Shown piece after piece: positions 1,213 through 44,121 of a stretch of 64,000 nt of DNA; within the stretch, counting starts at the first letter, position 1; every line of letters starts with the position of its first letter. The translations under genes and the position numbers were made by a program. Below the pieces are notes generated by a model. That model did not search any database. It was given only the letters and a program-made list of their open reading frames with translations, and was not told the DNA's origin. The DNA is from a virus. Its lineage: Duplodnaviria > Caudoviricetes. Location of the stretch: positions 23,961 through 87,960 of IMG/VR virus record IMGVR_UViG_3300021387_001147, one strand, 5' to 3'.

Positions 1213-3726
1213 ATGGCAGTAATTGAAAGTTATAGCAGTGTGGAGATATCTGATTCGTTAGATGTCGGATCGCTGTCATCATATTTATCAAGTTCTCAGC
1301 CGACTACAGTTGTATATGATCCGAATACAGATGTATACACACCCAACTGGGCTAGTACGAATTTAGTAATTACTCCGACGGTAACGTATAATGGAGCACA
1401 GCTTTCATTAACTGCTAACGAGCTATCGATTACATATCAAAGAAAAGATGGATCATCGTCTGCAACATCTTTAACAACTGGCGAATCTTTAAATAATGGC
1501 GTTTTAACGGTATCTAGGAACAAACTGTCGGAGAGTACTAGTGGCATTATCACTTATATTTGCACAGTCACTTATACAGATCCTTATAGTGCTGTTCCTA
1601 TATCTGTAAAGAACTCTATAACATATTCGCTCCTTACTAATGCGTCTCGAATAAAGCATGCTTACATTACAGGTGAAACAACTTTCCTATACGATTCGCT
1701 TAGAAATGTAATAGGAACCGGCTCTTTAACTATTCATGCTGATGTTCAGAACGTATCCGTCAGTAAGTGGGAATATTTGAATTCGTCTGGCAATTACGTT
1801 ACTTATCCTGATTCTGGAACGGAAACAGATCTAGTTGTACGAGCAGATGAGGCTGATATTTGGAATAATGGACGTACAGCGACAATAAAGCTTGTCACTT
1901 CAGATCCTGATACGTACGACATTGTACAGATTCAGAAGATCTACGACGGTGCAAACGGTACTGAAACGGTATCTGTAATCCTAACTAACACCAGTCATTA
2001 TGTTCCATGCGATGATGAAGGTAATGTCCTTTCGTGGAACGGTGCTCCTACCGAAATTCACATTTATGAAGGCGGCCAGGATGTTACAGCTGTTCCATGT
2101 ACTCTTTTGGATGAAGACGATGCAGTTCTGGTAGATGAAAACGGAGCGATCCTTACCGATTCTAACTGGACTGTTGCAATAGCGCCAGGACCTGGAATAA
2201 CTGGCACCTTTGAAAATTTCATCTTCACTCCGACGAGCCTAACACTTGAAACAAGTTACGTAGATTTCATTTGTTCGAAAGAAGGATACTCTAATCTTCG
2301 TGCAAGATATTCTATTACCAAATCTCGATCTGGAGCAGATGGAGAATCTCCAATAATTTATGAAGTCGGTGCCGATACATATGTACTTAACCTGAGTGAA
2401 TCTGGAGCTTTCTCGCCAGCATCTGTTAAGTTCTCTGCTCATACCATATCTGGTGAATCAATTACCAGAATAGATTATCCTGCGAGATTCATCATCTACG
2501 AATCTACCGACGGCATTAATTTCACTGAGAAGTATAGAAGTGCCGGTGATGAGTATGTGAAGACATATACTCCTTCCTCTGTTAACGTAGTTGCAATCAG
2601 ATGTGTAATGTATGCATCTGGATCTACAACTACTGTTCTTGATGAGCAGATGGTTGTTATTACAAAAGACGGAGTAGATGGAGCGCCTGGCATGTCAGGT
2701 ATGTCTATCGGACTTTCTAATTCTCAGGACATTATATCTTGTAACGAAAATGGATACGCTGCCGAAGCCAAGACAATAACAATTCCATTCTATGCTTATT
2801 TAGGTATAGAAAGAGTACCTGTTACAGCATCGATTATTGGATCTCTTCCTAGCGGTGTTTCCCTTTCAAGTAATGCGAGTGGAACAACTTCAGCAGATGG
2901 GCAGATAGTATTACAAGTTGCTAAAAATGCTACATTCGGTAATGCGTCCACTCTTACTGGAGCTATAATAATCAGGCTTGTATTTAATGGCGGCAGTGTA
3001 GATCGAAATTATATTTGGACAAAGAATCTGAAAGGCGTAGACGGCACAAGTACAAGCATTCTACAAATCTATTCCGACGATGGAAATATTATAAGGAATT
3101 CTGTTGGAACTGTGACATTAAAAGCTAGATACATAAACGGTGGAACTGTAGTAACGCCTACTAGCTTACAGTGGTATAAATTTCAAACAGGTTCATATAA
3201 AGCTATATCAGGAGCTACAGCTGCAACTCTAACAGTAACCGCAGCTATGGTCGATGATATGGCTTTCTTTAAATGCATCGGCACTTATGGCGGAGTATCC
3301 TGTGAAGACTACTATACAGTAGACGATATTCAGGATTTAATAAACGCTGAAGTATTCTCAACAGTCGCTGAATTTAAGAACGGCGAAGGATATGGTGCTG
3401 TTTATACAAGACTATATAGACCGGATGGAGAAATTGATCCTCTGTTGTCAACAGTATTTTCTGCAGTACCACCTTCTAATCCGTCAAACAACGATTACTA
3501 TTATCACCTCGATCGAGATAATAAGACAGTCACTCTTAAAAAGTATAATGGCTCATCTTGGGCTTCAGTAACAGAGAATTACAAATATACATATAAATAC
3601 TACAGAATCAATAAAGATGGGCAGGCATTAGATAAAGCACAGCCATATAAAACATCCAGATGCGTATACGTAGATCCAACTATAGTAGGTGAAGTGATGC
3701 AATTCGTATGCGAGGTTGATGCTTAG
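1213..3726 (+). CDS. Tail-associated beta-rich structural protein (Ig-like modules)
   Basis: 837 aa, Thr/Ser/Val-rich, short collagen-like G-X-X linkers, RBS gggatag. Confidence 0.7.
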   Translation: MAVIESYSSVEISDSLDVGSLSSYLSSSQPTTVVYDPNTDVYTPNWASTNLVITPTVTYNGAQLSLTANELSITYQRKDGSSSATSLTTGESLNNGVLTVSRNKLSESTSGIITYICTVTYTDPYSAVPISVKNSITYSLLTNASRIKHAYITGETTFLYDSLRNVIGTGSLTIHADVQNVSVSKWEYLNSSGNYVTYPDSGTETDLVVRADEADIWNNGRTATIKLVTSDPDTYDIVQIQKIYDGANGTETVSVILTNTSHYVPCDDEGNVLSWNGAPTEIHIYEGGQDVTAVPCTLLDEDDAVLVDENGAILTDSNWTVAIAPGPGITGTFENFIFTPTSLTLETSYVDFICSKEGYSNLRARYSITKSRSGADGESPIIYEVGADTYVLNLSESGAFSPASVKFSAHTISGESITRIDYPARFIIYESTDGINFTEKYRSAGDEYVKTYTPSSVNVVAIRCVMYASGSTTTVLDEQMVVITKDGVDGAPGMSGMSIGLSNSQDIISCNENGYAAEAKTITIPFYAYLGIERVPVTASIIGSLPSGVSLSSNASGTTSADGQIVLQVAKNATFGNASTLTGAIIIRLVFNGGSVDRNYIWTKNLKGVDGTSTSILQIYSDDGNIIRNSVGTVTLKARYINGGTVVTPTSLQWYKFQTGSYKAISGATAATLTVTAAMVDDMAFFKCIGTYGGVSCEDYYTVDDIQDLINAEVFSTVAEFKNGEGYGAVYTRLYRPDGEIDPLLSTVFSAVPPSNPSNNDYYYHLDRDNKTVTLKKYNGSSWASVTENYKYTYKYYRINKDGQALDKAQPYKTSRCVYVDPTIVGEVMQFVCEVDA

Positions 3727-3737
3727 GAGGAACTAAC

Positions 3738-6700
3738 ATGAGTATAGCGTTTGGCAGCATTACGCTAAGCTGCGTAAATGACGGCGAGCCTGGGAGAAAT
3801 GGGGTTGGGATTTCGTCAACTGTAGTTGAATACGCTACCGGATCATCTCAGACAATACCTCCTGAGTATACCCTCGTCGATGAAAACAATACTGTGCTTG
3901 TCGATGGCGATGGCGCTATCTTAACGAATGGCCAGTGGGAAACTGAAATTCCAGTAGTGCATGACGGTATGTACTTGTGGTCTAGAACGATCACGACATA
4001 CGATGATGGAACATTTAGCATATCGTATTCAGTAAGTAGAGACGGTATAGGCATATTAACAGAGAAAAGACAGTACTATCTATCTGATTCTCCTACTACT
4101 TTATCAGGAGGCTCATGGGTATATGAACAGCCATATCCGATTCCTGCTGGCAAATATATGTGGGGTCGTCTGGAATTCAAAATGACAGATGGAACCACTA
4201 CTTATTCAGAAGCTGTTTACGAAAATACTTTGAGTGGCATCATAAATAAGACAGATGCCATTGAAGGAAAGATAACACAGAAGATCTGGCAGACAGATAT
4301 TGAATCTGCTATTGATGACTTTGACACTCTCGAAGGCAACACAACTATAAGAGATCGAATTTCTGAGTTTTCACAGGATCTGGATGGAATTCATACAACT
4401 ATTGGCGATAAAACTTCAAGTCCTAGTGGAATATTGGAAAGGCTATCTAGAGTTTCTCAAACAGCTGACAAGATCTCATGGCTTGTGAAATCTGGTGATA
4501 ACATCTCTAATATGGTCCTTACTGATGAGATGTTTAATCTCATAACTCAGAAGATTAACATTTCTGGTAAGGTCACATTTAGTGCATTTGATTCAGCAGC
4601 TCAGCAAAAGTTTAATGACATGGAGACTGACCTCTCGAATATTAACATCCGAGACTTCAAACAAGAATACGGTTACAGTACAAGCAGAACTGTTCAACCT
4701 GTATCTTGGCAGACAAATGTTCCTGAAGCAGCTGAAGGACGTTATATTTGGCAGAAGACGACTTACACTACTAAAGGCAGTAGCCAGAAGATAGAAGAGA
4801 TAGTATGTCTAACAGGTCAGAAAGGCGATACTGGTCCTGCCGGATCATCTGTCACAGCTTATACGCTCGAAGTTTCTCACGCTGCTGTCGCTAAAGCAGT
4901 TAATGGATCATATAATCCTGCGTCCATTACACTTAACGCTAGGTCGAAGGTAGGGTCATCCCCTGCTTCTGATTACAGTGGACGATTCGTGATTGAGACG
5001 TCTACAGATGGCAGCACTTGGAGGAATCCTCCTGACTATACCTCATCTATAAACGAAGCAATTCGCAGCTTTACAATTCCATCAGGAACAGTTGCAATCA
5101 GATGTTCGCTTTATGCTGCAGGCGGTACTACAACACTTCTTGATCAGCAGACAGTTCCAGTTGTAAACGACGGCGCTAATGGCGGAAAAGGCGAAGACGC
5201 ATATACGATTATATTAACGAATGAGGCTCACACATTTATCGGTAATAGCTCTACAGTTATTCCGACCAGTGTGAATTGCGGTGTTATAGCTTATAAAGGG
5301 GCTACTCAGATAGCAGCTCATATAGGAGAGATTACTGGCAAGCCGTCTGGACTTAGCACCTCTATTACGAATAACGACACTACCACAGCCAGATTTACAG
5401 TAAGCGTTACGTCTTCTTTAGCATCGAATAATGGCACTCTTACAGTTCCAATAGTTGCAGATGGAAAGCAGTTTACTAAATACTTTTCGTATTCTGTATC
5501 ACTTAAAGGGGCTACAGGAGCACAAGGACCTGCTGGAAAAGGCATTACAAATACGGATATTGCTTACTGTGTTGGTGAATCTGGAACCGAAGCTCCTGGC
5601 GGTTATACGATATGGGCTGATGGAGATGGAGCTAAATTAACAGATGGAGATGGAGCCTATCTTATTGACAGCACATGGTCAACAACTATACCAGATGTTC
5701 CAGACGGATCGTTCCTTTGGGTAAGGAAGATTGAAACATATTCTGATGGCAGCTCTACTACATCATATAGTGTAGCTAGAAGTGGTGTATCTGGTGGCGA
5801 CGCTTATACCGTTATGCTGACGAATGAATCTCATACCTTCTTAGGAGCAGAAGATCATGCCATTGGTGGGACAGTTATATTTGAGGTTGCTGCTTACAAA
5901 GGTGCTGGTCGAATAGAAGCTACTATAGGAAACATATCAAGTACTTCAGGTGGGAGCTCTGTATCTGTAACCGGTATGTCTGTTACAGTTACAGAAAACG
6001 GCACAAAGAATCCTAAGATCAGTGTTACCGTTACCGATAAAATGAAGGATGCAAACGGTATACTTTATATTCCGATAACTGTAGATGGTAACACTTTCAC
6101 AAAAGAATTTACTTATTCAGTAGCATTCAAAGGAAAAGACGGAAAAGATGCTAAAGTTCGTTATCTTGAGGTTTCAAATGTTGCAATAGTAAGAGATTCT
6201 AGTGGTACATATACTCCTAATTATATTCAGGTAGGCGCTAAAGAGAGATCTGGAACTTCTGCCATGACTGGGTATTCAGGCAGATTTAAGATTGAGACAA
6301 CTGAAAACTTTACTAATTGGACCGCTAGGTATACAACGCCAAGTGACGTATCAGCTTATATTTATTCCAATTTCCCTGCGAACATTAAAGCTATCAGATG
6401 CAGTCTATACGAAGCTGGAGGAACAACTGTACTTCTTGATCAGCAGACAGTAGCAATCGTTGAGAATGGCTCTGAAGGAAGAGGCGTAGCATCTATTGAA
6501 TATTACTATTGTTTAAGTGAAAATAAGCCGGTAACGAATCCTATAGACGATAAGGTGAATTGGTCTACAACTCCTCAGAAGTATGACGACGTAAGCAAGA
6601 AATATTGGACTTGTACAGTAACTACATATTCTGACGGATCTAAAGTTGCTAGTGCTATAGTCGAGGATTCTGGTGCGAATTCTATGAATGAGTATGCTAT

Positions 6701-8441
6701 GCTCGCATATCAGGCAGCTGGAACTTCTGAACAGATTCTTAAGGTATGGACTAAAGATTCTAGTCTTGCTGATACTACAATTGATGGCGGATTCATTAAA
6801 ACTCATACCATAGATTCTGAGCGGCTTAAAACTGATGCTATAATGTCTGGGAACTATGATCCGTATAGTGGAGGAAAAGCAGCATACAATATTGCACTTT
6901 CTAACGATATGCATACCTTCACTACTGGTGGAAGCTCTACTTTGATTAACGTTGTAGGCTACAAAGGAAGAACTAAAGTTGCCACTAGAGTAGCTTTAAA
7001 AAATGCTGCACCTTCTGGTATGACCTGTTCCATTTCTGATAATAATACAGTAAATACTAAGTGCACTGTTACTACCTCTTCATCTTTTAATAGAAGTGGT
7101 TCGCTTACTTTTGTCGTTACAGTCGGAAGTGGGACAGAAGCTTATAGTGTAGAAAGAACTTTTACATATAATGTTTCGTCAGTTAATAGGCAGCTTAGCT
7201 TAATCTACATTGTTGACACTTCTAGCTATCCAGTATCAATCATTGAGAAGAAAACTGATAATACATTTAACCCGGATAACATATCTGTACAAGCTACAGC
7301 TATACCTGGCGGTATATACAACGGACGCTTTCGTATAGAGACAACTGCCAATATAGAAGACAATCCAGAAAATACTTATTGGGCGTCCCAATACGAATCG
7401 TCACAGGATGAGTTTATGTATAGGTATACTGCCATCCCTGACAAAGTAAAAGCTATCAGATTTTCATTGTATGCATCTGGCGGGTTTACAACACTTCTTG
7501 ATCAGCAGACTGTACTTGTAGCCACTGATTTTGCAGCGTTTTCAGCACAGGGTACATATCTTGACTTAGCTACAGGAAACTTTTATTCTCCGAATTTTGC
7601 AGTAATAAATACCGCTCCTTCTGATACCGGCTTTACTAAGGGCACTTATATGGGACCATGGAGAGTTACAGAAGACGCTATTTGGAAGATAAGCCAAAAG
7701 TTTAAGAATTCTCAAGCGAACTCTGCATATTTTGGAAATGAAGGCATTAGTATTACTGATAAGTTTAGCGTTGACAAGACTGGATATTTGGATACGAAAA
7801 AAGGCAAGATTGGCGATTGGTATATCGATGATGTTAATGGATATTTAAGAAGCGCCGACAGTACTGTTATAATATCACCTAAAAGTACCAAAGATGGAGA
7901 TAATTATATATACGCGAAATTCGGTGGAACATGGATAGATAATCAAGGAAGCATGTATACAAGAGGCATAAATCTTGAGAAATGGATCAGTGCCTATAAT
8001 ATTCATGGGTTTGCCAGTGCACTTGTACCGCAGTGCGGAAAAGAGCTTGGCATTAACAACAGTACTGATTATAATTTTGTAAAGTTCGGAAGTTATGCTT
8101 CAGCATGGATAGCAGCTCACGAGTCAGACAGTTTATTATATGCAAGAGCTGGTGGCGTAATATATGAACTTGGCAACTTCTTGTCCAATACAGTATGTCT
8201 TCGATATAAAAAATCGTCTATAAGAACTGACACTTTCACCGACGTTCAGCTTGGAAAAGTATATTTTGTTTCGATTTATCATACGCAATATGGTGACAGT
8301 ATTGGTCTTTATATGGTTATTGGTGGTAAAGCAACGTACTGTACAATAATCGGCGGAGCTAATCTTAGATTAACAGTTACTGCCAATTCAATAGCATTCG
8401 AAGACACTAAGAATACTTCATCTTGGTACATTTACTATTAA
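3738..8441 (+). CDS. Large tail fibre / adhesin with repeated modules
   Basis: 1567 aa; repeated YTxxLTNExHTF and LLDQQTV modules, collagen-like GQKGDTGPAG, W..T.T.Y.DG repeats. Confidence 0.75.
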   Translation: MSIAFGSITLSCVNDGEPGRNGVGISSTVVEYATGSSQTIPPEYTLVDENNTVLVDGDGAILTNGQWETEIPVVHDGMYLWSRTITTYDDGTFSISYSVSRDGIGILTEKRQYYLSDSPTTLSGGSWVYEQPYPIPAGKYMWGRLEFKMTDGTTTYSEAVYENTLSGIINKTDAIEGKITQKIWQTDIESAIDDFDTLEGNTTIRDRISEFSQDLDGIHTTIGDKTSSPSGILERLSRVSQTADKISWLVKSGDNISNMVLTDEMFNLITQKINISGKVTFSAFDSAAQQKFNDMETDLSNINIRDFKQEYGYSTSRTVQPVSWQTNVPEAAEGRYIWQKTTYTTKGSSQKIEEIVCLTGQKGDTGPAGSSVTAYTLEVSHAAVAKAVNGSYNPASITLNARSKVGSSPASDYSGRFVIETSTDGSTWRNPPDYTSSINEAIRSFTIPSGTVAIRCSLYAAGGTTTLLDQQTVPVVNDGANGGKGEDAYTIILTNEAHTFIGNSSTVIPTSVNCGVIAYKGATQIAAHIGEITGKPSGLSTSITNNDTTTARFTVSVTSSLASNNGTLTVPIVADGKQFTKYFSYSVSLKGATGAQGPAGKGITNTDIAYCVGESGTEAPGGYTIWADGDGAKLTDGDGAYLIDSTWSTTIPDVPDGSFLWVRKIETYSDGSSTTSYSVARSGVSGGDAYTVMLTNESHTFLGAEDHAIGGTVIFEVAAYKGAGRIEATIGNISSTSGGSSVSVTGMSVTVTENGTKNPKISVTVTDKMKDANGILYIPITVDGNTFTKEFTYSVAFKGKDGKDAKVRYLEVSNVAIVRDSSGTYTPNYIQVGAKERSGTSAMTGYSGRFKIETTENFTNWTARYTTPSDVSAYIYSNFPANIKAIRCSLYEAGGTTVLLDQQTVAIVENGSEGRGVASIEYYYCLSENKPVTNPIDDKVNWSTTPQKYDDVSKKYWTCTVTTYSDGSKVASAIVEDSGANSMNEYAMLAYQAAGTSEQILKVWTKDSSLADTTIDGGFIKTHTIDSERLKTDAIMSGNYDPYSGGKAAYNIALSNDMHTFTTGGSSTLINVVGYKGRTKVATRVALKNAAPSGMTCSISDNNTVNTKCTVTTSSSFNRSGSLTFVVTVGSGTEAYSVERTFTYNVSSVNRQLSLIYIVDTSSYPVSIIEKKTDNTFNPDNISVQATAIPGGIYNGRFRIETTANIEDNPENTYWASQYESSQDEFMYRYTAIPDKVKAIRFSLYASGGFTTLLDQQTVLVATDFAAFSAQGTYLDLATGNFYSPNFAVINTAPSDTGFTKGTYMGPWRVTEDAIWKISQKFKNSQANSAYFGNEGISITDKFSVDKTGYLDTKKGKIGDWYIDDVNGYLRSADSTVIISPKSTKDGDNYIYAKFGGTWIDNQGSMYTRGINLEKWISAYNIHGFASALVPQCGKELGINNSTDYNFVKFGSYASAWIAAHESDSLLYARAGGVIYELGNFLSNTVCLRYKKSSIRTDTFTDVQLGKVYFVSIYHTQYGDSIGLYMVIGGKATYCTIIGGANLRLTVTANSIAFEDTKNTSSWYIYY

Positions 8442-8464: not shown

Positions 8465-9433
8465 ATGCCTGATCAAACACGAAATCTTAATAGTGTTACA
8501 GACTTTGCTGGAACACTAGATAGCAACGATCGAATCATCATGACAGACAACAAGGCTTCACTTAAAGCTCTTACTACCGCTATTCTTGGTAAGGCGATAA
8601 TTGAAGGGTATACTGGATCATCGTTAGCAGGAGCGAGTCAGTCTGTTAAGTCTGCTATTGATAGTTTAAATAGCAAACAAGCAGGAGCAAACGCAGGTGG
8701 TCACAACTCCGTTTTCCGTGGCAAGAACCTCGGAACATCTGTTACCGCTTCTCAGTGGTCGGCAATCAGCGGTGGGACGTTCGATGATTTGTATATTGGC
8801 GACTATTGGGTAATTAACTCAGTAACGTGGCGTATTGCAGCTTTCGACTATTGGCTGAATTGCGGTGACACAGCATGCACGACTCACCATGCTGTCATCG
8901 TTCCTGACAGCAATTTGCTGAACGCAGACGGAAGCACAACGCATTATATGAATACTTCAAATACTACTGAAGGCGGCTACATTGGGAGCGGATTTTTCTC
9001 CGGTACGAATGCCGACAGTTCATCGAATACGGCGAAAGCGCAGTGCGTCACAAAGGCACAGAATGCTTTCGGGTCTTCACATATTCTGACTCACAGAGAA
9101 TATTTCTCTAATGCAGTAACGAACGGATATGTATCTGGAGGAACGTGGACAGACAGCACTGTAGATTTGATGAACGAGTCGATGGTATATGGCAACAAGT
9201 TCTTCGAGAACATCATTAACGGAACAAATGTTCCTGCCGCATATACTATTGATAAAGTACAGCTCCCCCTGTTTGCTTTTACACCGCAGTATATTTGTAA
9301 TCGTGCGGACTGGTGGCTTCGTTCTGTTGTTTCTTCTTCGCATTTCGCTCGTGTCGGCGCCAGCGGGCTTTGCTACTACTTCGACGCTTCGAGCCCAGGG
9401 CTTGGGCTTCGCCCGGCTTTCGGAATCAAATAA
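8465..9433 (+). CDS. DGR target-like protein with C-terminal CLec-type variable region (receptor-binding)
   Basis: C-terminus WWLRSVVSSSHFARV...ASSPGLGLRPAF is typical of Firmicutes phage DGR targets; the IGDYW...WRIAAFDY core is also typical. Confidence 0.8.
   Translation: MPDQTRNLNSVTDFAGTLDSNDRIIMTDNKASLKALTTAILGKAIIEGYTGSSLAGASQSVKSAIDSLNSKQAGANAGGHNSVFRGKNLGTSVTASQWSAISGGTFDDLYIGDYWVINSVTWRIAAFDYWLNCGDTACTTHHAVIVPDSNLLNADGSTTHYMNTSNTTEGGYIGSGFFSGTNADSSSNTAKAQCVTKAQNAFGSSHILTHREYFSNAVTNGYVSGGTWTDSTVDLMNESMVYGNKFFENIINGTNVPAAYTIDKVQLPLFAFTPQYICNRADWWLRSVVSSSHFARVGASGLCYYFDASSPGLGLRPAFGIK
9308..9433 (+). other. DGR variable region (VR)
   Basis: Only 7 A in 111 nt (9311-9421); run of NNC/NNT codons as expected from adenine mutagenesis of AAY codons. 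Confidence 0.75.
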
Positions 9434-9440
9434 TCTTTAA

Positions 9441-9463
9441 TCTCCGCCCCTCGTGGGCGGAGA
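9441..9463 (+). promoter_or_regulatory. GC-rich hairpin after VR (DGR target-recognition hairpin and/or terminator)
   Basis: tctccgccc-ctcgt-gggcggaga, 9-bp perfect stem, 7 nt after the stop. Confidence 0.7.
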
Positions 9464-9489
9464 GGTAATTCTGAAAGGAGGAGTTGACT

Positions 9490-9537
9490 ATGTCAGTTCC
9501 TAAGTACCAATTTAACTCATTACTTTTCACAAGTTAA
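9490..9537 (+). pseudogene. Probable truncated avd (DGR accessory) start
   Basis: Strong RBS aaggagg then MSVPKYQFNSLLFTS*; an MSVPK-like start is typical of Avd-like ORFs following VR hairpins (recalled, not searched). Confidence 0.45.
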
Positions 9538-9563: not shown

Positions 9564-10013
9564 ATGAAAAAGAATCTGACTACAGCCCAAGTTTTATATT
9601 TGCTTGACTTCTATGGCGGGATGAATGAAGAAAAGCTTAACGAACTTGGGATTAAAGTCAGGTGGGCACTAAAGAGAGCTGTGAGTTCTGTGTATCCTAT
9701 AGCTAAGCAGTTCGAGGATTTCAGAAAAGAAGAAATTGAAAAGATCCGAGCCAATTATGCCACACCTGAAAAATCTGTAATTGAGCAAGACGGAGAAGAA
9801 ACTAAAAGATCTATAAAAGATGAATTCAAAGAAGCTTATCAGAAAGATCTTGATAGTCTTAATAAAGCCTTACGAGAGCTTTTGGATGAGCAGCACGAAT
9901 TTGAGTATGGCGGAGTTGATATGGATACGGTTGTTGAATCGTTACCAGACAACTCCGTTTTTACGTTTAAAGATCTTGAAATATTAAGTGATTTCATAGG
10001 AGAAGACCGATGA
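9564..10013 (+). CDS. Hypothetical phage protein (tail chaperone-like, helical)
   Basis: RBS aaggag, 149 aa, position between tail and lysis genes. Confidence 0.6.
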   Translation: MKKNLTTAQVLYLLDFYGGMNEEKLNELGIKVRWALKRAVSSVYPIAKQFEDFRKEEIEKIRANYATPEKSVIEQDGEETKRSIKDEFKEAYQKDLDSLNKALRELLDEQHEFEYGGVDMDTVVESLPDNSVFTFKDLEILSDFIGEDR

Positions 10014-10105
10014 AAGAAAAAACGGATATTAAAGATTTGATTCCTGAAGCTACTGACGAAACAAAAGAAGAGCTTTCAGACAATAAAGGAGACGATGAAG
10101 AATGA
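10010..10105 (+). CDS. Small acidic protein (31 aa)
   Basis: ATGA overlaps with both neighbours; RBS ggag. Confidence 0.5.
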   Translation: MKEKTDIKDLIPEATDETKEELSDNKGDDEE

Positions 10106-16900: not shown

Positions 16901-18109
16901 TTATTTTATCTTGGAAAGTTCTTTATGAAGCCAAATGATATTTCTGGCGGTGTATACGCGTTCAGTAATGTCCATAATTCTGTGACCAACAATTAACTTG
17001 ATAGCGTACTCATCTACTCCGGCTTCCTTAGCCATGGTGATGAAATGCTTTCTCCCATCGTGAGGCCTATGATCCGGATTGAGTTTAAGCTCACTTGCCA
17101 GCTCCTTATATTTTACTTTCAAGATTTCATACGATATAGGGTACTTCGGTTTAAAGAACAGCTTACTCATTCCGGATTTAATAGCCTCAGTATACCATCT
17201 TTGAAGAATAGGTCTAATCTTTTCGTGAATCGGTACTTCTCTATTCTTTCCTGCCTCAGTCTTGGATCCGCAGATAATTGACCAGTCTTTCATATTTACT
17301 TTCGATACATCAATATTACAAAGCTCATTAGGACGAAGACCTGAATAGCACTGAAAAACGATCATGTCAGATACCCATGATTCACCTACCTTACTCCAGA
17401 GCTTCTTCATCTCTTCATCTGTATATTTGATATGAGGCTTAACGGCATCATCATTACCGAACCCAGTCCTGATATCACGAGCGTAATTCCGATCTACGTA
17501 TCCATACTCAACGGCGTAGTCCATCATCATTGAGATCGTATACTTTATATTTTTCTTTGTGTTATCTGAAGGGTATAGTGTCTTGTCATTCACAGTCTTA
17601 TGAGCATCGTCAAGAAGTCTTCTAAGATCTGGTGTCTTAATTGACTGCACTAGTCTAAACCCAATAACCTCTTCACAGTACTTCCAGGCAGCTTTAATGG
17701 CATCATACCTCGAATTGCTAACCTCCTGCCTATGAATCTCTACCCATCTCTCATACAGCTCGTTCATAGTCATGTCGTTATCGAAGTCATATGGATTTGC
17801 ATGATATTCTACGAGTGCTTTATAGGCTTCATTATAGGTCTTAAAGTATGCTTCAGGCTTAAGTAGTTTCCCTATCGGATGCCCAAACTCATCCTTTCCA
17901 ACAGATACCATGACTCTGAAAGGTTTACGGCGCTTCTTATCTGTGAGTTCAGTAATCCTGCCGAAACCATTAGGAAGTCTCATATGAGTAGTACGCTTCT
18001 TTTTAGGCGAGTCTTTAGGCTTGGTGAGCGATAGTGGCATACCGCAGTTAGGACAAGAGATAGCTTTATCTGATACGTCATGGCCACACTCTGGGCATTT
18101 AATTAGCAT
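16901..18109 (-). CDS. int: Tyrosine integrase with N-terminal zinc ribbon
   Basis: CPECG..CPNCG; GLRPNE, HDGRKHF, VGH, ERVY catalytic residues. Confidence 0.93.
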   Translation of the reverse strand: MLIKCPECGHDVSDKAISCPNCGMPLSLTKPKDSPKKKRTTHMRLPNGFGRITELTDKKRRKPFRVMVSVGKDEFGHPIGKLLKPEAYFKTYNEAYKALVEYHANPYDFDNDMTMNELYERWVEIHRQEVSNSRYDAIKAAWKYCEEVIGFRLVQSIKTPDLRRLLDDAHKTVNDKTLYPSDNTKKNIKYTISMMMDYAVEYGYVDRNYARDIRTGFGNDDAVKPHIKYTDEEMKKLWSKVGESWVSDMIVFQCYSGLRPNELCNIDVSKVNMKDWSIICGSKTEAGKNREVPIHEKIRPILQRWYTEAIKSGMSKLFFKPKYPISYEILKVKYKELASELKLNPDHRPHDGRKHFITMAKEAGVDEYAIKLIVGHRIMDITERVYTARNIIWLHKELSKIK

Positions 18110-42014: not shown

Positions 42015-42296
42015 ATGGATATGAGTATTAATACTACTAAGCTCACAGGCTCTGTTCCAGTCGCAGTGGCAGCCAAAGTATATGGTAAAGATGCTTGCTG
42101 GGTAAGAGCAGGAATTATTGAGGGATGGCTTCCGATTGGTACTGCAACAAGACGAGGGAAGCAGGTAAAGACTATCAAAGAAATGGACAGCAGGCTCGGT
42201 AGGATTAACTATTATATTTCGCCAGCTAAGTTATACGAGAGCACTGGGTATTTGTATATGTTTAAAGATAATAAGAGAAAGGAGAATCAAATATGA
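42015..42296 (+). CDS. Small DNA-binding-like phage protein
   Basis: VPVAVAAKVYGKD..WVRAGI..GWLPIG...YYISP. Confidence 0.6.
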   Translation: MDMSINTTKLTGSVPVAVAAKVYGKDACWVRAGIIEGWLPIGTATRRGKQVKTIKEMDSRLGRINYYISPAKLYESTGYLYMFKDNKRKENQI

Positions 42297-44121
42297 ATAT
42301 TAATACTGTATATAGATGCCCATACTACGGTAACAGTATAGAATGTCCTAATGAGTGTAATTCTATACAGCATGCAACACTGGCTAACGAATTCTATGCA
42401 ACTGACAAAATCTATGGATACGATCCGTTTTTCTGCGATCGCGATGGAGTTCTGATTGACAATGATAAAAACCCGATATGCAGAATAAATATCGACACAG
42501 ATATTGAGCATAGTCTTCAGAATGCTATTGATTATATTTCAAAATGCAAAGTTAGAGGCGAGAAAGGATAAGGAGGAAGATTAGGTATGGGACCGAAAGA
42601 AAAAGAAACACGGGACATTATTAATGATACAGCAATAGCTCTTCAAGATGGTGCAAATCCTGAGAGATGCATGTTTATTCTTCTATGTGATATAGCAGTG
42701 TCACTTTCTAATATTTGTGATAATGATTTAAAAGAGGAGTGATTATATTTGCATGATGTTGCTCGAAATGAATACGGAGAAGTGATTGGAAGCTGTAAGA
42801 TTTGTAAACATATAAAGAGTGCTGCTAAGCCTGTAACAGGAGATCCTGGAATGTATGAACTTGACTTCGCATGTTCTTTGCCAGATCACGAATGTAGATT
42901 TGAGGAAAAAGTTGATGAAAAAGTTGATGAATCTTGTGACGATTACAAACTATATCGTAGTATAAGTGGAAATGCCAAGGAGCTTCTTAATCTTATCAGT
43001 GATGAACTTTTCGCAATCAATAAAGGAGGAGATAAAGTTAAAGGATTAGCTCTCATTGAAGGATATTTAGAAGGATTTCAGATGCTAATGAATGCTTTAA
43101 GGTATATTGATCCGCCTGCTAATTTTGGTGATAAAGAAGGAGAGTGATCATATTTGAAAGTAGAAAACGCATTAGTAGATTTTTTGATAAAGCATCCAAG
43201 AATCAGAGGCATATCTTTTAAGCCCTGTCTTCTGGACTTTGAAAGAGCTATAATTGTTGATCTTTCTATCGTGGATGCAGAAGGCTTTGAAAGATATGCT
43301 GATCATAAAATCATAACGCATTCAGAACTTTTATCTAACGAAAATTTTCTTATAGATACTTTAGAGACAATGGCTAAAGAGCTTGAAGTTACTTATCCGC
43401 AATTTGAAGGATTCGATGATTAGAGAGGAATGATTATATTTGACGAATGAGGATTTGTACCGATTGTTTCGAAGTACGTATCCAGAAATTAATCCTGTTG
43501 ATTATAGACCTGCAGAATCTATGTTCGTGAAAGGCAGAGTAGGTATAACTATCTGGATTGACAATGGAGATATGTTAATGTATTTTCCAAATCAAGACAC
43601 TCTAAATAGACGAGATGCATCCATAAGTGAGTTATTTGCAAAGATGCTTGCCAGTAATACGATTGTAAGTAATGAAGTAGTTGAAAAATTGCTAAATAAT
43701 GAGGAAGAGGAGTGATTATATTTGATAGATATCTGTATGTCTGGTGTGTGCAAAAACTGTAAGTATGCCGATCTTAAGCTTGAATCGCTGGTTTTCGATT
43801 CGTTCGAAGATCAGAGAACTGATTACATACTAAAATGTAGTCACGAAGAGATCTGCCACTTGTGGGAACGAAAACTAGAATCTGAACGTGCCAAGTTTAA
43901 TAGATAGGGGTGAATACTAATGTTTGAATTAAATCCTATACAACCATTTATAGAAATGGATAGTAAAGCTAAACATGATCAAGAGTTATGGGTTGCAATA
44001 ACAACTGCTATTCATTTATGCGGTCTTAGCGGAGAAGATGTAACTATGATGGGAATCGAGACATTAAAAAGGCTTGGCAGGTATGATTTGCTTCCTCCGT
44101 GTGAAAGGTAGGTGATTATAT

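Follow-up and report, generated by a model that had tools for sequence, protein, structure and literature searches.

A phage receptor-binding gene with the probable remains of a lost diversity-generating retroelement

Introduction

In the BPP-1-type cassette of diversity-generating retroelements (DGRs), mtd with its variable repeat (VR) is followed by the initiation of mutagenic homing (IMH) site, a hairpin, avd, the template repeat (TR) and the reverse transcriptase (RT) gene brt, the VR standing at the 3' end of the receptor-binding gene (PMC3240598). The requirement of the hairpin for DGR targeting was demonstrated in BPP-1, and a GC-rich hairpin or cruciform 4-34 bp downstream of the VR marks a DGR target (PMC3240598). 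Incomplete loci, that is a target and a VR lacking an intact RT and/or TR, have been described in Thiohalocapsa PB-PSB1 (PMC10907252). Here we analyze a locus of such an incomplete kind at positions 8465-9537 of a 64,000-nucleotide stretch of phage DNA (hereafter the window), which corresponds to bases 23,961-87,960 of the 87,960-bp IMG/VR record IMGVR_UViG_3300021387_001147 (CheckV completeness 100%). All features of the locus lie on the + strand and positions are those of the window.

As in BPP-1, the VR of this locus is found at the 3' end of a gene of the receptor-binding type, a GC-rich hairpin stands a few nucleotides past the stop codon and the start of a gene, apparently of the Avd helical-bundle family, comes next; TR and RT are present in relatives, whose VR/TR mismatches are adenine-specific. 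Unlike BPP-1, the locus keeps only five codons of avd and has neither TR nor RT. Also, the hairpin loop counts 5 nt, in contrast to the GRNA tetraloop reported for BPP-1-like elements (PMC3240598), and the Avd-like protein of the lineage, with its 187-220 aa, has no Pfam match. Whereas the incomplete Thiohalocapsa loci are chromosomal and share their genome with complete DGRs, so that activity in trans could be shown there (PMC10907252), the complete genome of the window phage holds no DGR at all. A literature search returned no description of a comparable deletion series in phages, which does not by itself prove that there is none.

A previous sequence-only reading proposed an orphan DGR target, either frozen by a clean deletion or still diversified in trans. 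We found support for the orphan target and favour the first alternative over the second. It is very likely that the locus is a decayed DGR in which target, VR and hairpin are intact, avd is cut down to five codons, TR and RT are gone, and a single variant of the receptor-binding protein is frozen.

Results

None of the three components of a complete autonomous DGR, namely RT, TR and an Avd gene, was found in the genome of the window phage. First, a six-frame search of the whole 87,960-bp record with PF00078 gave no match at E<=10, whereas it detects the RT in 11 related records. Second, a sliding scan of both strands of the whole genome against the VR, tolerant to mismatches at A, recovered only the VR itself, and no direct repeat involving 9300-9420 was reported in the window. 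The lack of TR and RT, already noticed in the window, therefore holds for the entire phage record.

In contrast to this truncated form, relatives keep the full cassette at the same place, which bears out the proposed origin as a DGR target. Seven IMG/VR loci encode relatives of the target protein. In three of them (L004, L006 and L008, 52-62% identity), an RT lies 1.1-1.5 kb downstream, in the order target-VR-hairpin-accessory gene-TR-RT, and the direct repeats of 99-115 nt have all their VR/TR mismatches at TR adenines (11/11, 7/7 and 8/8, respectively). The same layout was observed in L016, L032, L034 and others, where the mismatches at adenines amount to 12/12 to 17/17, or 16/17, as well as in the cultured Acutalibacter phage Fontainebleau (ON453893), in which a homologue of the target lies upstream of an annotated RT. 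Thus, in Fontainebleau, L004, L006, L008, L016 and L040, a homologous target (39-62% identity) is followed by the hairpin, the Avd-like gene, the TR and the RT, all intact. In L040, as in the truncated locus L038 described below, a roughly 100-aa gene and then XkdX come after the cassette.

Two of these relatives have features of their own. L015 (1-3457), like L035, carries two tandem targets, each with its own VR and with the identical 21-nt hairpin at 1306 and 2354, while avd-TR-RT follow only the second one, making a two-target DGR. In L040 (1592-1750 and 2357-2490), an otherwise intact cassette, TR and VR disagree at four codons whose TR base is not adenine, as would be seen after mutation or conversion of the template itself, and the stop codon of the target is replaced, so that the open reading frame (ORF) reads through the hairpin. 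We tried the L040 TR as a candidate template for the window VR and ruled it out given its many mismatches at non-adenine positions.

The target gene of the window (8465-9433, from the ORF listing) encodes a 322-aa protein of the tail-fibre/receptor-binding type, and its VR spans 9302-9416, an extent deduced from the limits of TR/VR homology in intact L040. The composition of this segment is extreme: only 8 of the 114 nt in 9308-9421 are A, whereas a 114-nt segment of the genome contains 36.9 +/- 5.8 on average, and over the whole 87,960 nt the 114-nt segment with the fewest A (7) lies at 9310 while the one with the highest GC content (61%) lies at 9302. The A-depletion and the NNC/NNT codons reported before are thus present, apart from small adjustments. 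Moreover, the variable NNC/NNT codons align with AAY codons of the TRs in L008 and L040.

By clustering at 90% identity, we found that the window protein has two other close relatives, L038 and the L002/L039 type. L038 is a 2.4-kb ENA contig, whereas L002 and L039 come from contigs of 52-154 kb, with an IMG/VR record of 127 kb. The window and L038 differ at 33 of the 105 VR positions in 9307-9411 and, in the gene body, at just 10 of 641 (Fisher 4e-22), that is a 20-fold higher density of differences in the VR; 27 of the 33 are at codon positions 1-2, and the proteins differ in 17 of their last 45 residues. Since the VR differs so strongly while the body barely does, a DGR must have acted recently in this lineage. 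The more distant L043, a 1.3-kb contig of JGI Ga0326511 whose target protein is 69% identical to that of the window, shows VR differences of the same kind: DNA identity is 70% in the gene body, 89% in 9301-9433 and 97% from the stop codon to the hairpin (9434-9465), and 11 of the 15 differences in 9301-9433 fall on the first two codon positions at those sites. A segment that is better conserved than the surrounding gene except at AAY-type sites is what is expected from a shared template. An exact-protein look-up with the L043 target did not yield a longer contig. Hence the window VR is of DGR origin, with a 3'-terminal position and variation concentrated at AAY-type sites in comparison with both L038 and L043; VR codons do vary between close relatives, and relatives do carry avd and RT at this place, whereas the opposite on both counts would have spoken against a DGR.

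The 9-bp GC hairpin described in the earlier reading is present at 9441-9463 (9-bp stem and 5-nt loop, by folding), beginning 8 nt past the target stop codon and within the distance from the VR given for DGR targets. Folded as DNA, it reaches a dG of -11.5 kcal/mol (z = -5.0), and 0 of 200 shuffled sequences fold as well. We found the exact 21-nt hairpin sequence on nine other IMG/VR contigs, always just past the end of a VR-like gene. An RT is present in eight of these nine records, and the ninth contig stops 350 nt after the hairpin. In the loci sharing the 21-mer, the next gene starts with MSVPK and encodes 205-220 aa, the TR stands about 700 nt from the hairpin and the RT follows. Distant relatives carry stems of another sequence at the same place, and for each of the seven predicted stem pairs (7/7) at least one sequence has both bases changed in a compensatory manner. 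These data identify the element as the GC-rich DNA hairpin or cruciform that serves in DGR target recognition.

Three further occurrences of the hairpin were recorded. A match of the 21-mer in Streptomyces was taken as chance in GC-rich DNA. A Lachnospiraceae metagenome-assembled genome from water deer omasum (L045, 1-360) contains a family member with a VR-like end and the identical hairpin, adjoined by phage terminase genes, which gives a lead to the host clade, Lachnospiraceae of the ruminant gut; the small-share runs X8-X20 were left out as evidence of habitat. Finally, in L021 (1060-1200; G015, 42243-42956), the gene behind a family member carrying this hairpin is not avd, and the RT lies near the far end of the contig (45.6 kb), which points to a different cassette order or to a circularly permuted contig.

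Downstream of the hairpin, the remains of the next gene are still legible. A strong ribosome-binding site (RBS, 9473-9483), that of the former avd gene and shared together with the start codon by L002 and L038, precedes an ATG at 9490 that opens an ORF of 15 codons (9490-9537). Its first five codons (MSVPK, 9490-9504) are identical to the start of the 132-aa stump of L038 and of the 45-aa stump of L002, and these stumps are homologous from MSVPK onward to the intact genes of 187-220 aa. Past the junction at 9504/9505, the sequence (9505-9537) consists of ten unrelated codons and a stop, of which 9505-9515 is shared with the junction of L002. Downstream of 9504, we found no similarity to any part of the intact L040 cassette. 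The claim that avd is cut off after a few codons is thereby confirmed.

The intact protein of this lineage is recognized neither by Pfam nor by PHROGs. Its identity was approached through structure, with the model of an intact 187-aa homologue, P0124 (pLDDT 83, five helices). When this model was compared to 48,161 PDB chains with VIA-align, the top four matches (2gsc, 2rld, 8ub7_B and 4dwl) all belonged to the Avd family, with Z of 13.1-14.4 and root-mean-square deviations of 1.9-3.0 over 106-113 residues; 8ub7_B is the Avd chain of a DGR ribonucleoprotein and 4dwl the Avd of BPP-1. Foldseek alone returned only generic helical bundles at E>0.04, and these Z values have to be read knowing that helical bundles generally give high structural scores. 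Since the four top ranks all go to one family and the gene has the right position, we call it Avd-like, an assignment that the model supports.

L038, L002 and the window form a series of truncations. L038 has the same C-terminal domain and hairpin as the window, and its 132-aa avd tracks the intact homologues for about 117 codons before running into the C-terminal tail of an RT, after which come the 100-aa gene and XkdX that follow the RT in intact L040. With respect to L040, positions 2128-3727 of the latter (1,600 bp) are gone, the junction being in a 5-6-nt microhomology. In L002, the avd stump equals that of L038 through codon 42 and then diverges; past this break come AT-rich sequence, a terminator, an RHH gene and a tyrosine recombinase. 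In the window, codon 5 is joined directly to the 11 nt that follow the L002 break. We estimate that an 11-mer shared at flexible offsets would be found by chance with a probability of roughly 1e-3. The simplest reading of these sequences is an ancestral break after codon 42, common to L002 and the window, and then the loss of about 112 further nt from within the stump, which would have produced the window junction. Such a loss also changes the reading frame, hence the ten unrelated codons. A deletion that froze one variant, as proposed before, is therefore favoured, but it was not a single clean one. The order of the two deletions is one that we infer.

These junctions also bear on the reliability of the assembly. 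VR/TR repeats are known to break short-read assemblies, and around the VR the assembly graph of one sequencing run (X3, see below) breaks into short unitigs, hence a collapsed repeat or mis-joined contigs might have removed the cassette. We consider such an artefact very improbable for the following reasons. First, the junction is inside avd and not at a VR/TR boundary. Second, the same arrangement is found in five contigs from IMG/VR, ENA and Logan, and an uninterrupted 42.9-kb Logan contig reproduces it with no differences; in the roughly 88-kb assemblies of ENA and Logan, which are independent, protein and gene order are identical to the window, and the 322-aa protein is identical in five assemblies (IMG/VR, ENA with 88,016 bp, and Logan). 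Third, the junctions of L002 and L038 are different from it and independent.

The same remnants speak to whether the gene was ever a DGR target. The A-poor, GC-rich C-terminus could in principle be the composition of a conserved domain, and the hairpin a transcription terminator. With >7,456 homologues at E<=1e-20 the family is indeed very large, and it includes RT-less members that are also A-poor at the C-terminus. L005 and L007 (records 100% and 97% complete) have A-poor VR-like ends with no RT, hairpin or avd stump. Likewise, the tail fibre ORF23 of Lactobacillus phage JCL1032 (NC_019456), annotated as possibly associated with host specificity, has a C-terminal domain 46% identical to that of the window, the same WxLR...GVRPAF end and an A-poor last 132 nt, and lysis genes come next with no RT annotated after the gene. 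RT-less members of this receptor-binding family are thus not rare. However, the hairpin has no run of T and is identical to those found behind the VRs of RT-bearing loci, it is followed by the RBS, start codon and five homologous codons of avd, and the differences to L038 and L043 concentrate at codon positions 1-2 of AAY-type sites. Above all, L038 retains fragments of both avd and RT, and these remnants refute an origin outside DGRs, which we regard as hardly conceivable. Unlike the window, JCL1032 ORF23 has neither hairpin nor avd stump, so that a DGR past is not demonstrable there, while the window still shows the scars.

Given that the target is of DGR origin and that the cassette is lost, we asked whether the VR is frozen or still diversified in trans. 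First, between the window and L002 there are 0 differences in 9307-9394, compared to 11 of 641 in the gene body, where the divergence equals that between the window and L038. Second, we examined run X3, which comes from the study that also gave run X1 but from another sample. Its graph displays two alternative flanks on each side of the VR, with depths of 10.2 and 5.9 (5') and of 11.1 and 6.2 (3'), and one VR-core unitig only, exactly 9307-9394, at a depth of 15.1. Two flank pairs with one VR-core unitig indicate that two phages share one VR allele in one gut. This single shared allele, taken together with the five assemblies with an identical protein, favours a frozen VR.

Diversification in trans, in which a DGR of the host or of a co-infecting relative (for example an L043-like phage) would supply Avd, RT and TR RNA while the retained VR 3' end and hairpin would suffice for retrohoming, appears unlikely to us. 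The window does keep what a recipient site needs, a VR 3' end plus hairpin; in BPP-1, IMH and hairpin suffice to target a heterologous gene (PMC3240598), and both remote and incomplete loci are diversified in trans in Thiohalocapsa (PMC10907252). In addition, the window has exactly the same hairpin as active loci. L043 agrees almost exactly with the window in VR scaffold, stop region and hairpin, and its avd reads open over at least 80 codons to where the contig stops. TR-like contigs in the sheep-gut runs X6 and X7 share the 5' scaffold of the VR (9302-9349) before continuing in AAY codons. Against this stand the complete phage genome with neither TR nor RT, and a VR core that is identical in two phages, in five assemblies and in the one unitig where haplotypes co-occur. 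The TR-like contigs of X6 and X7 also depart from the window VR where the base is not adenine, in the codon that follows GGG-NNT.

Searches for the lost template point the same way. The pattern of invariant VR positions matched only this VR lineage: three VR-derived patterns found only L002 in IMG/VR, a VR pattern found only the VR of L043 in JGI metagenomes, and the pattern from the VR 3' half added nothing in IMG/VR and found nothing in GTDB genomes. A TR differing from the VR only at adenines, which the sequence-only reading had suggested to look for, is thus absent from the phage genome and was not recovered by the pattern searches in IMG/VR, JGI metagenomes and GTDB. Neither a matching TR nor heterogeneity of the VR, the two marks of a remote target acted upon in trans, was found in the phage genome, the pattern searches or the contig-level data, which falls short of proving their absence.

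A more general version of the same idea is that RT-less phages keep the VR 3' end and the hairpin in order to borrow the DGR of co-infecting relatives, thereby acting as receivers. We think this improbable; if true, such phages would be diversified occasionally without carrying a 2-kb cassette, and three differently truncated loci would be tolerated in one tight lineage.

Several points weigh against a decayed and frozen locus as we describe it. First, VR variation was read from Logan contigs; rare variants are lost in these, and minority variants of the VR would escape notice at this contig level. Second, the hairpin and the VR 3' end are still perfect, which also fits a target still in use. 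Third, no intact cassette of the exact sub-lineage was found: an avd-internal 26-mer from L038 matched nothing in IMG/VR or JGI metagenomes and the closest intact Avd-like protein among 5.8 billion proteins is 69% identical, leaving the cognate TR as a deduction. Fourth, the region is a fine-scale mosaic, in which the 3' flank of the window (9395-9465) matches L043 while that of L002 matches L038, and every combination of shared states among the four sequences occurs in the 5' flank, so that recombination blurs which event came first. Several of these flank differences lie beyond the end of TR homology, which argues for homologous recombination among co-circulating modules and not for retrohoming. 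The identical VR core may likewise have been spread to two backbones by homologous recombination.

The target gene itself is built of two parts. The N-terminal segment (8465-8665), delimited by protein alignment and by the start of blastn similarity to L002 at 8666, is lineage-specific: it is not common to L002, L038 or L043, with 55% identity to L043, and presumably is the part that attaches to the phage tail. The remainder, with the C-terminal binding domain, the VR, the hairpin and the avd stump (8666-9504), behaves as an exchangeable module, being 97.4% identical to L002 (8666-9510, 845 nt) and about 98% identical to L038 outside the VR. In L002 (5947-7242) and L039 (6001-7242), we noticed that the 413-aa target homologue translates only with TAG read as Gln. 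The L002-type phage thus appears to use a recoded stop codon, whereas the window phage reads normally under table 11 despite sharing the 845-nt module with it.

The C-type-lectin-like fold suggested for the C-terminus could not be confirmed. The C-terminus of the family matches DUF6273, above the cut-off for L008 but below it for the window target (E = 0.0098). Homologues in phage JCL1032 are annotated as tail fiber, and PHROGs has no family for the target. In its AlphaFold model (mean pLDDT 71), residues 237-306, that is the VR-bearing part, score below 50. Foldseek with this model gave nothing at E<=0.001 and a profile search against PDB sequences found nothing. An exhaustive VIA-align comparison gave weak matches: 9qa6, the N-terminal region of the T. 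ramosa IgA peptidase (Z 5.7), then the Legionella Lcl C-terminal domain (Z 2.7), TaqVP (Z 2.1) and TvpA (Z 2.1), the last two being DGR variable proteins. Coming from a model of low confidence over the VR-bearing part, these matches are at most suggestive.

The locus belongs to the late region, between the gene of a 1567-aa tail fibre (3738-8441) and the lysis genes. In the 3' direction come a 149-aa ORF (9564-10013), a 31-aa ORF and an endolysin with Amidase_2, PG_binding_1 and CW_7 domains, the two small ORFs (9564-10105) separating the DGR scar from the endolysin. Neither ORF has a match in Pfam or PHROGs, and an IMG/VR pattern search for relatives of the 149-aa gene, as a way to phages sharing the backbone, found none. 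Further away, Pfam identifies a tyrosine integrase with an N-terminal zinc-ribbon domain (16901-18109, - strand), which implies a temperate lifestyle. Between 18100 and 32000, a promoter-like repeat of 33-47 nt (TTCGCA, spacer, TATAAT) is found in many copies before short genes, often with hairpins in front (repeat families D1-D4 and D9-D15). Finally, an 80-nt segment occurs in four diverged copies at 2576-7514, within both large tail fibre genes (family D5), indicating internal domain repeats in the 837-aa and 1567-aa proteins.

Discussion

Taking our observations together, we propose the following history for the locus, which we reconstruct from comparisons between sequences. The comparisons establish that the VR is of DGR origin, what the stump is, that the genome lacks TR and RT, and that the VR is unchanged between the window and L002. 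The 322-aa receptor-binding protein was thus a DGR target, whose C-terminal 115 nt (the VR) were repeatedly overwritten by adenine-mutagenised cDNA copied from a TR, under the guidance of the VR 3' end and the hairpin that follows it. The cassette downstream of the hairpin was then lost in the window lineage. In a first step, the Avd-like gene would have been broken after codon 42 and the rest of avd, the TR and the RT replaced or deleted, giving the state seen in L002. In a second step, the further deletion within the stump would have left the window phage its five avd codons. The hairpin, the RBS and the 15-codon ORF would now be inert leftovers. With TR and RT gone, the VR would no longer be rewritten and the phage would be left with one fixed receptor-binding variant, which we infer to be functional and kept by selection.

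Incomplete DGR loci and RT-less members of this family were already known, and the biology is otherwise as expected. What sets the window apart from the other RT-less members is that its scars are still legible. It thus provides a clear natural example of how a phage loses a DGR, through successive deletions that begin within avd and take out TR and RT, with breakpoints mapped to the nucleotide by comparing L038, L002 and the window to the intact L040. For annotation, A-poor C-termini together with the conserved hairpin of the lineage flag former DGR targets in RT-less genomes; DGR surveys require an RT, and such loci go uncounted. Finally, a receptor-binding tip written by a DGR can become fixed and then be shared, as illustrated by the same VR core in two phage backbones that co-occur in one gut sample, one of which reads TAG as a sense codon.

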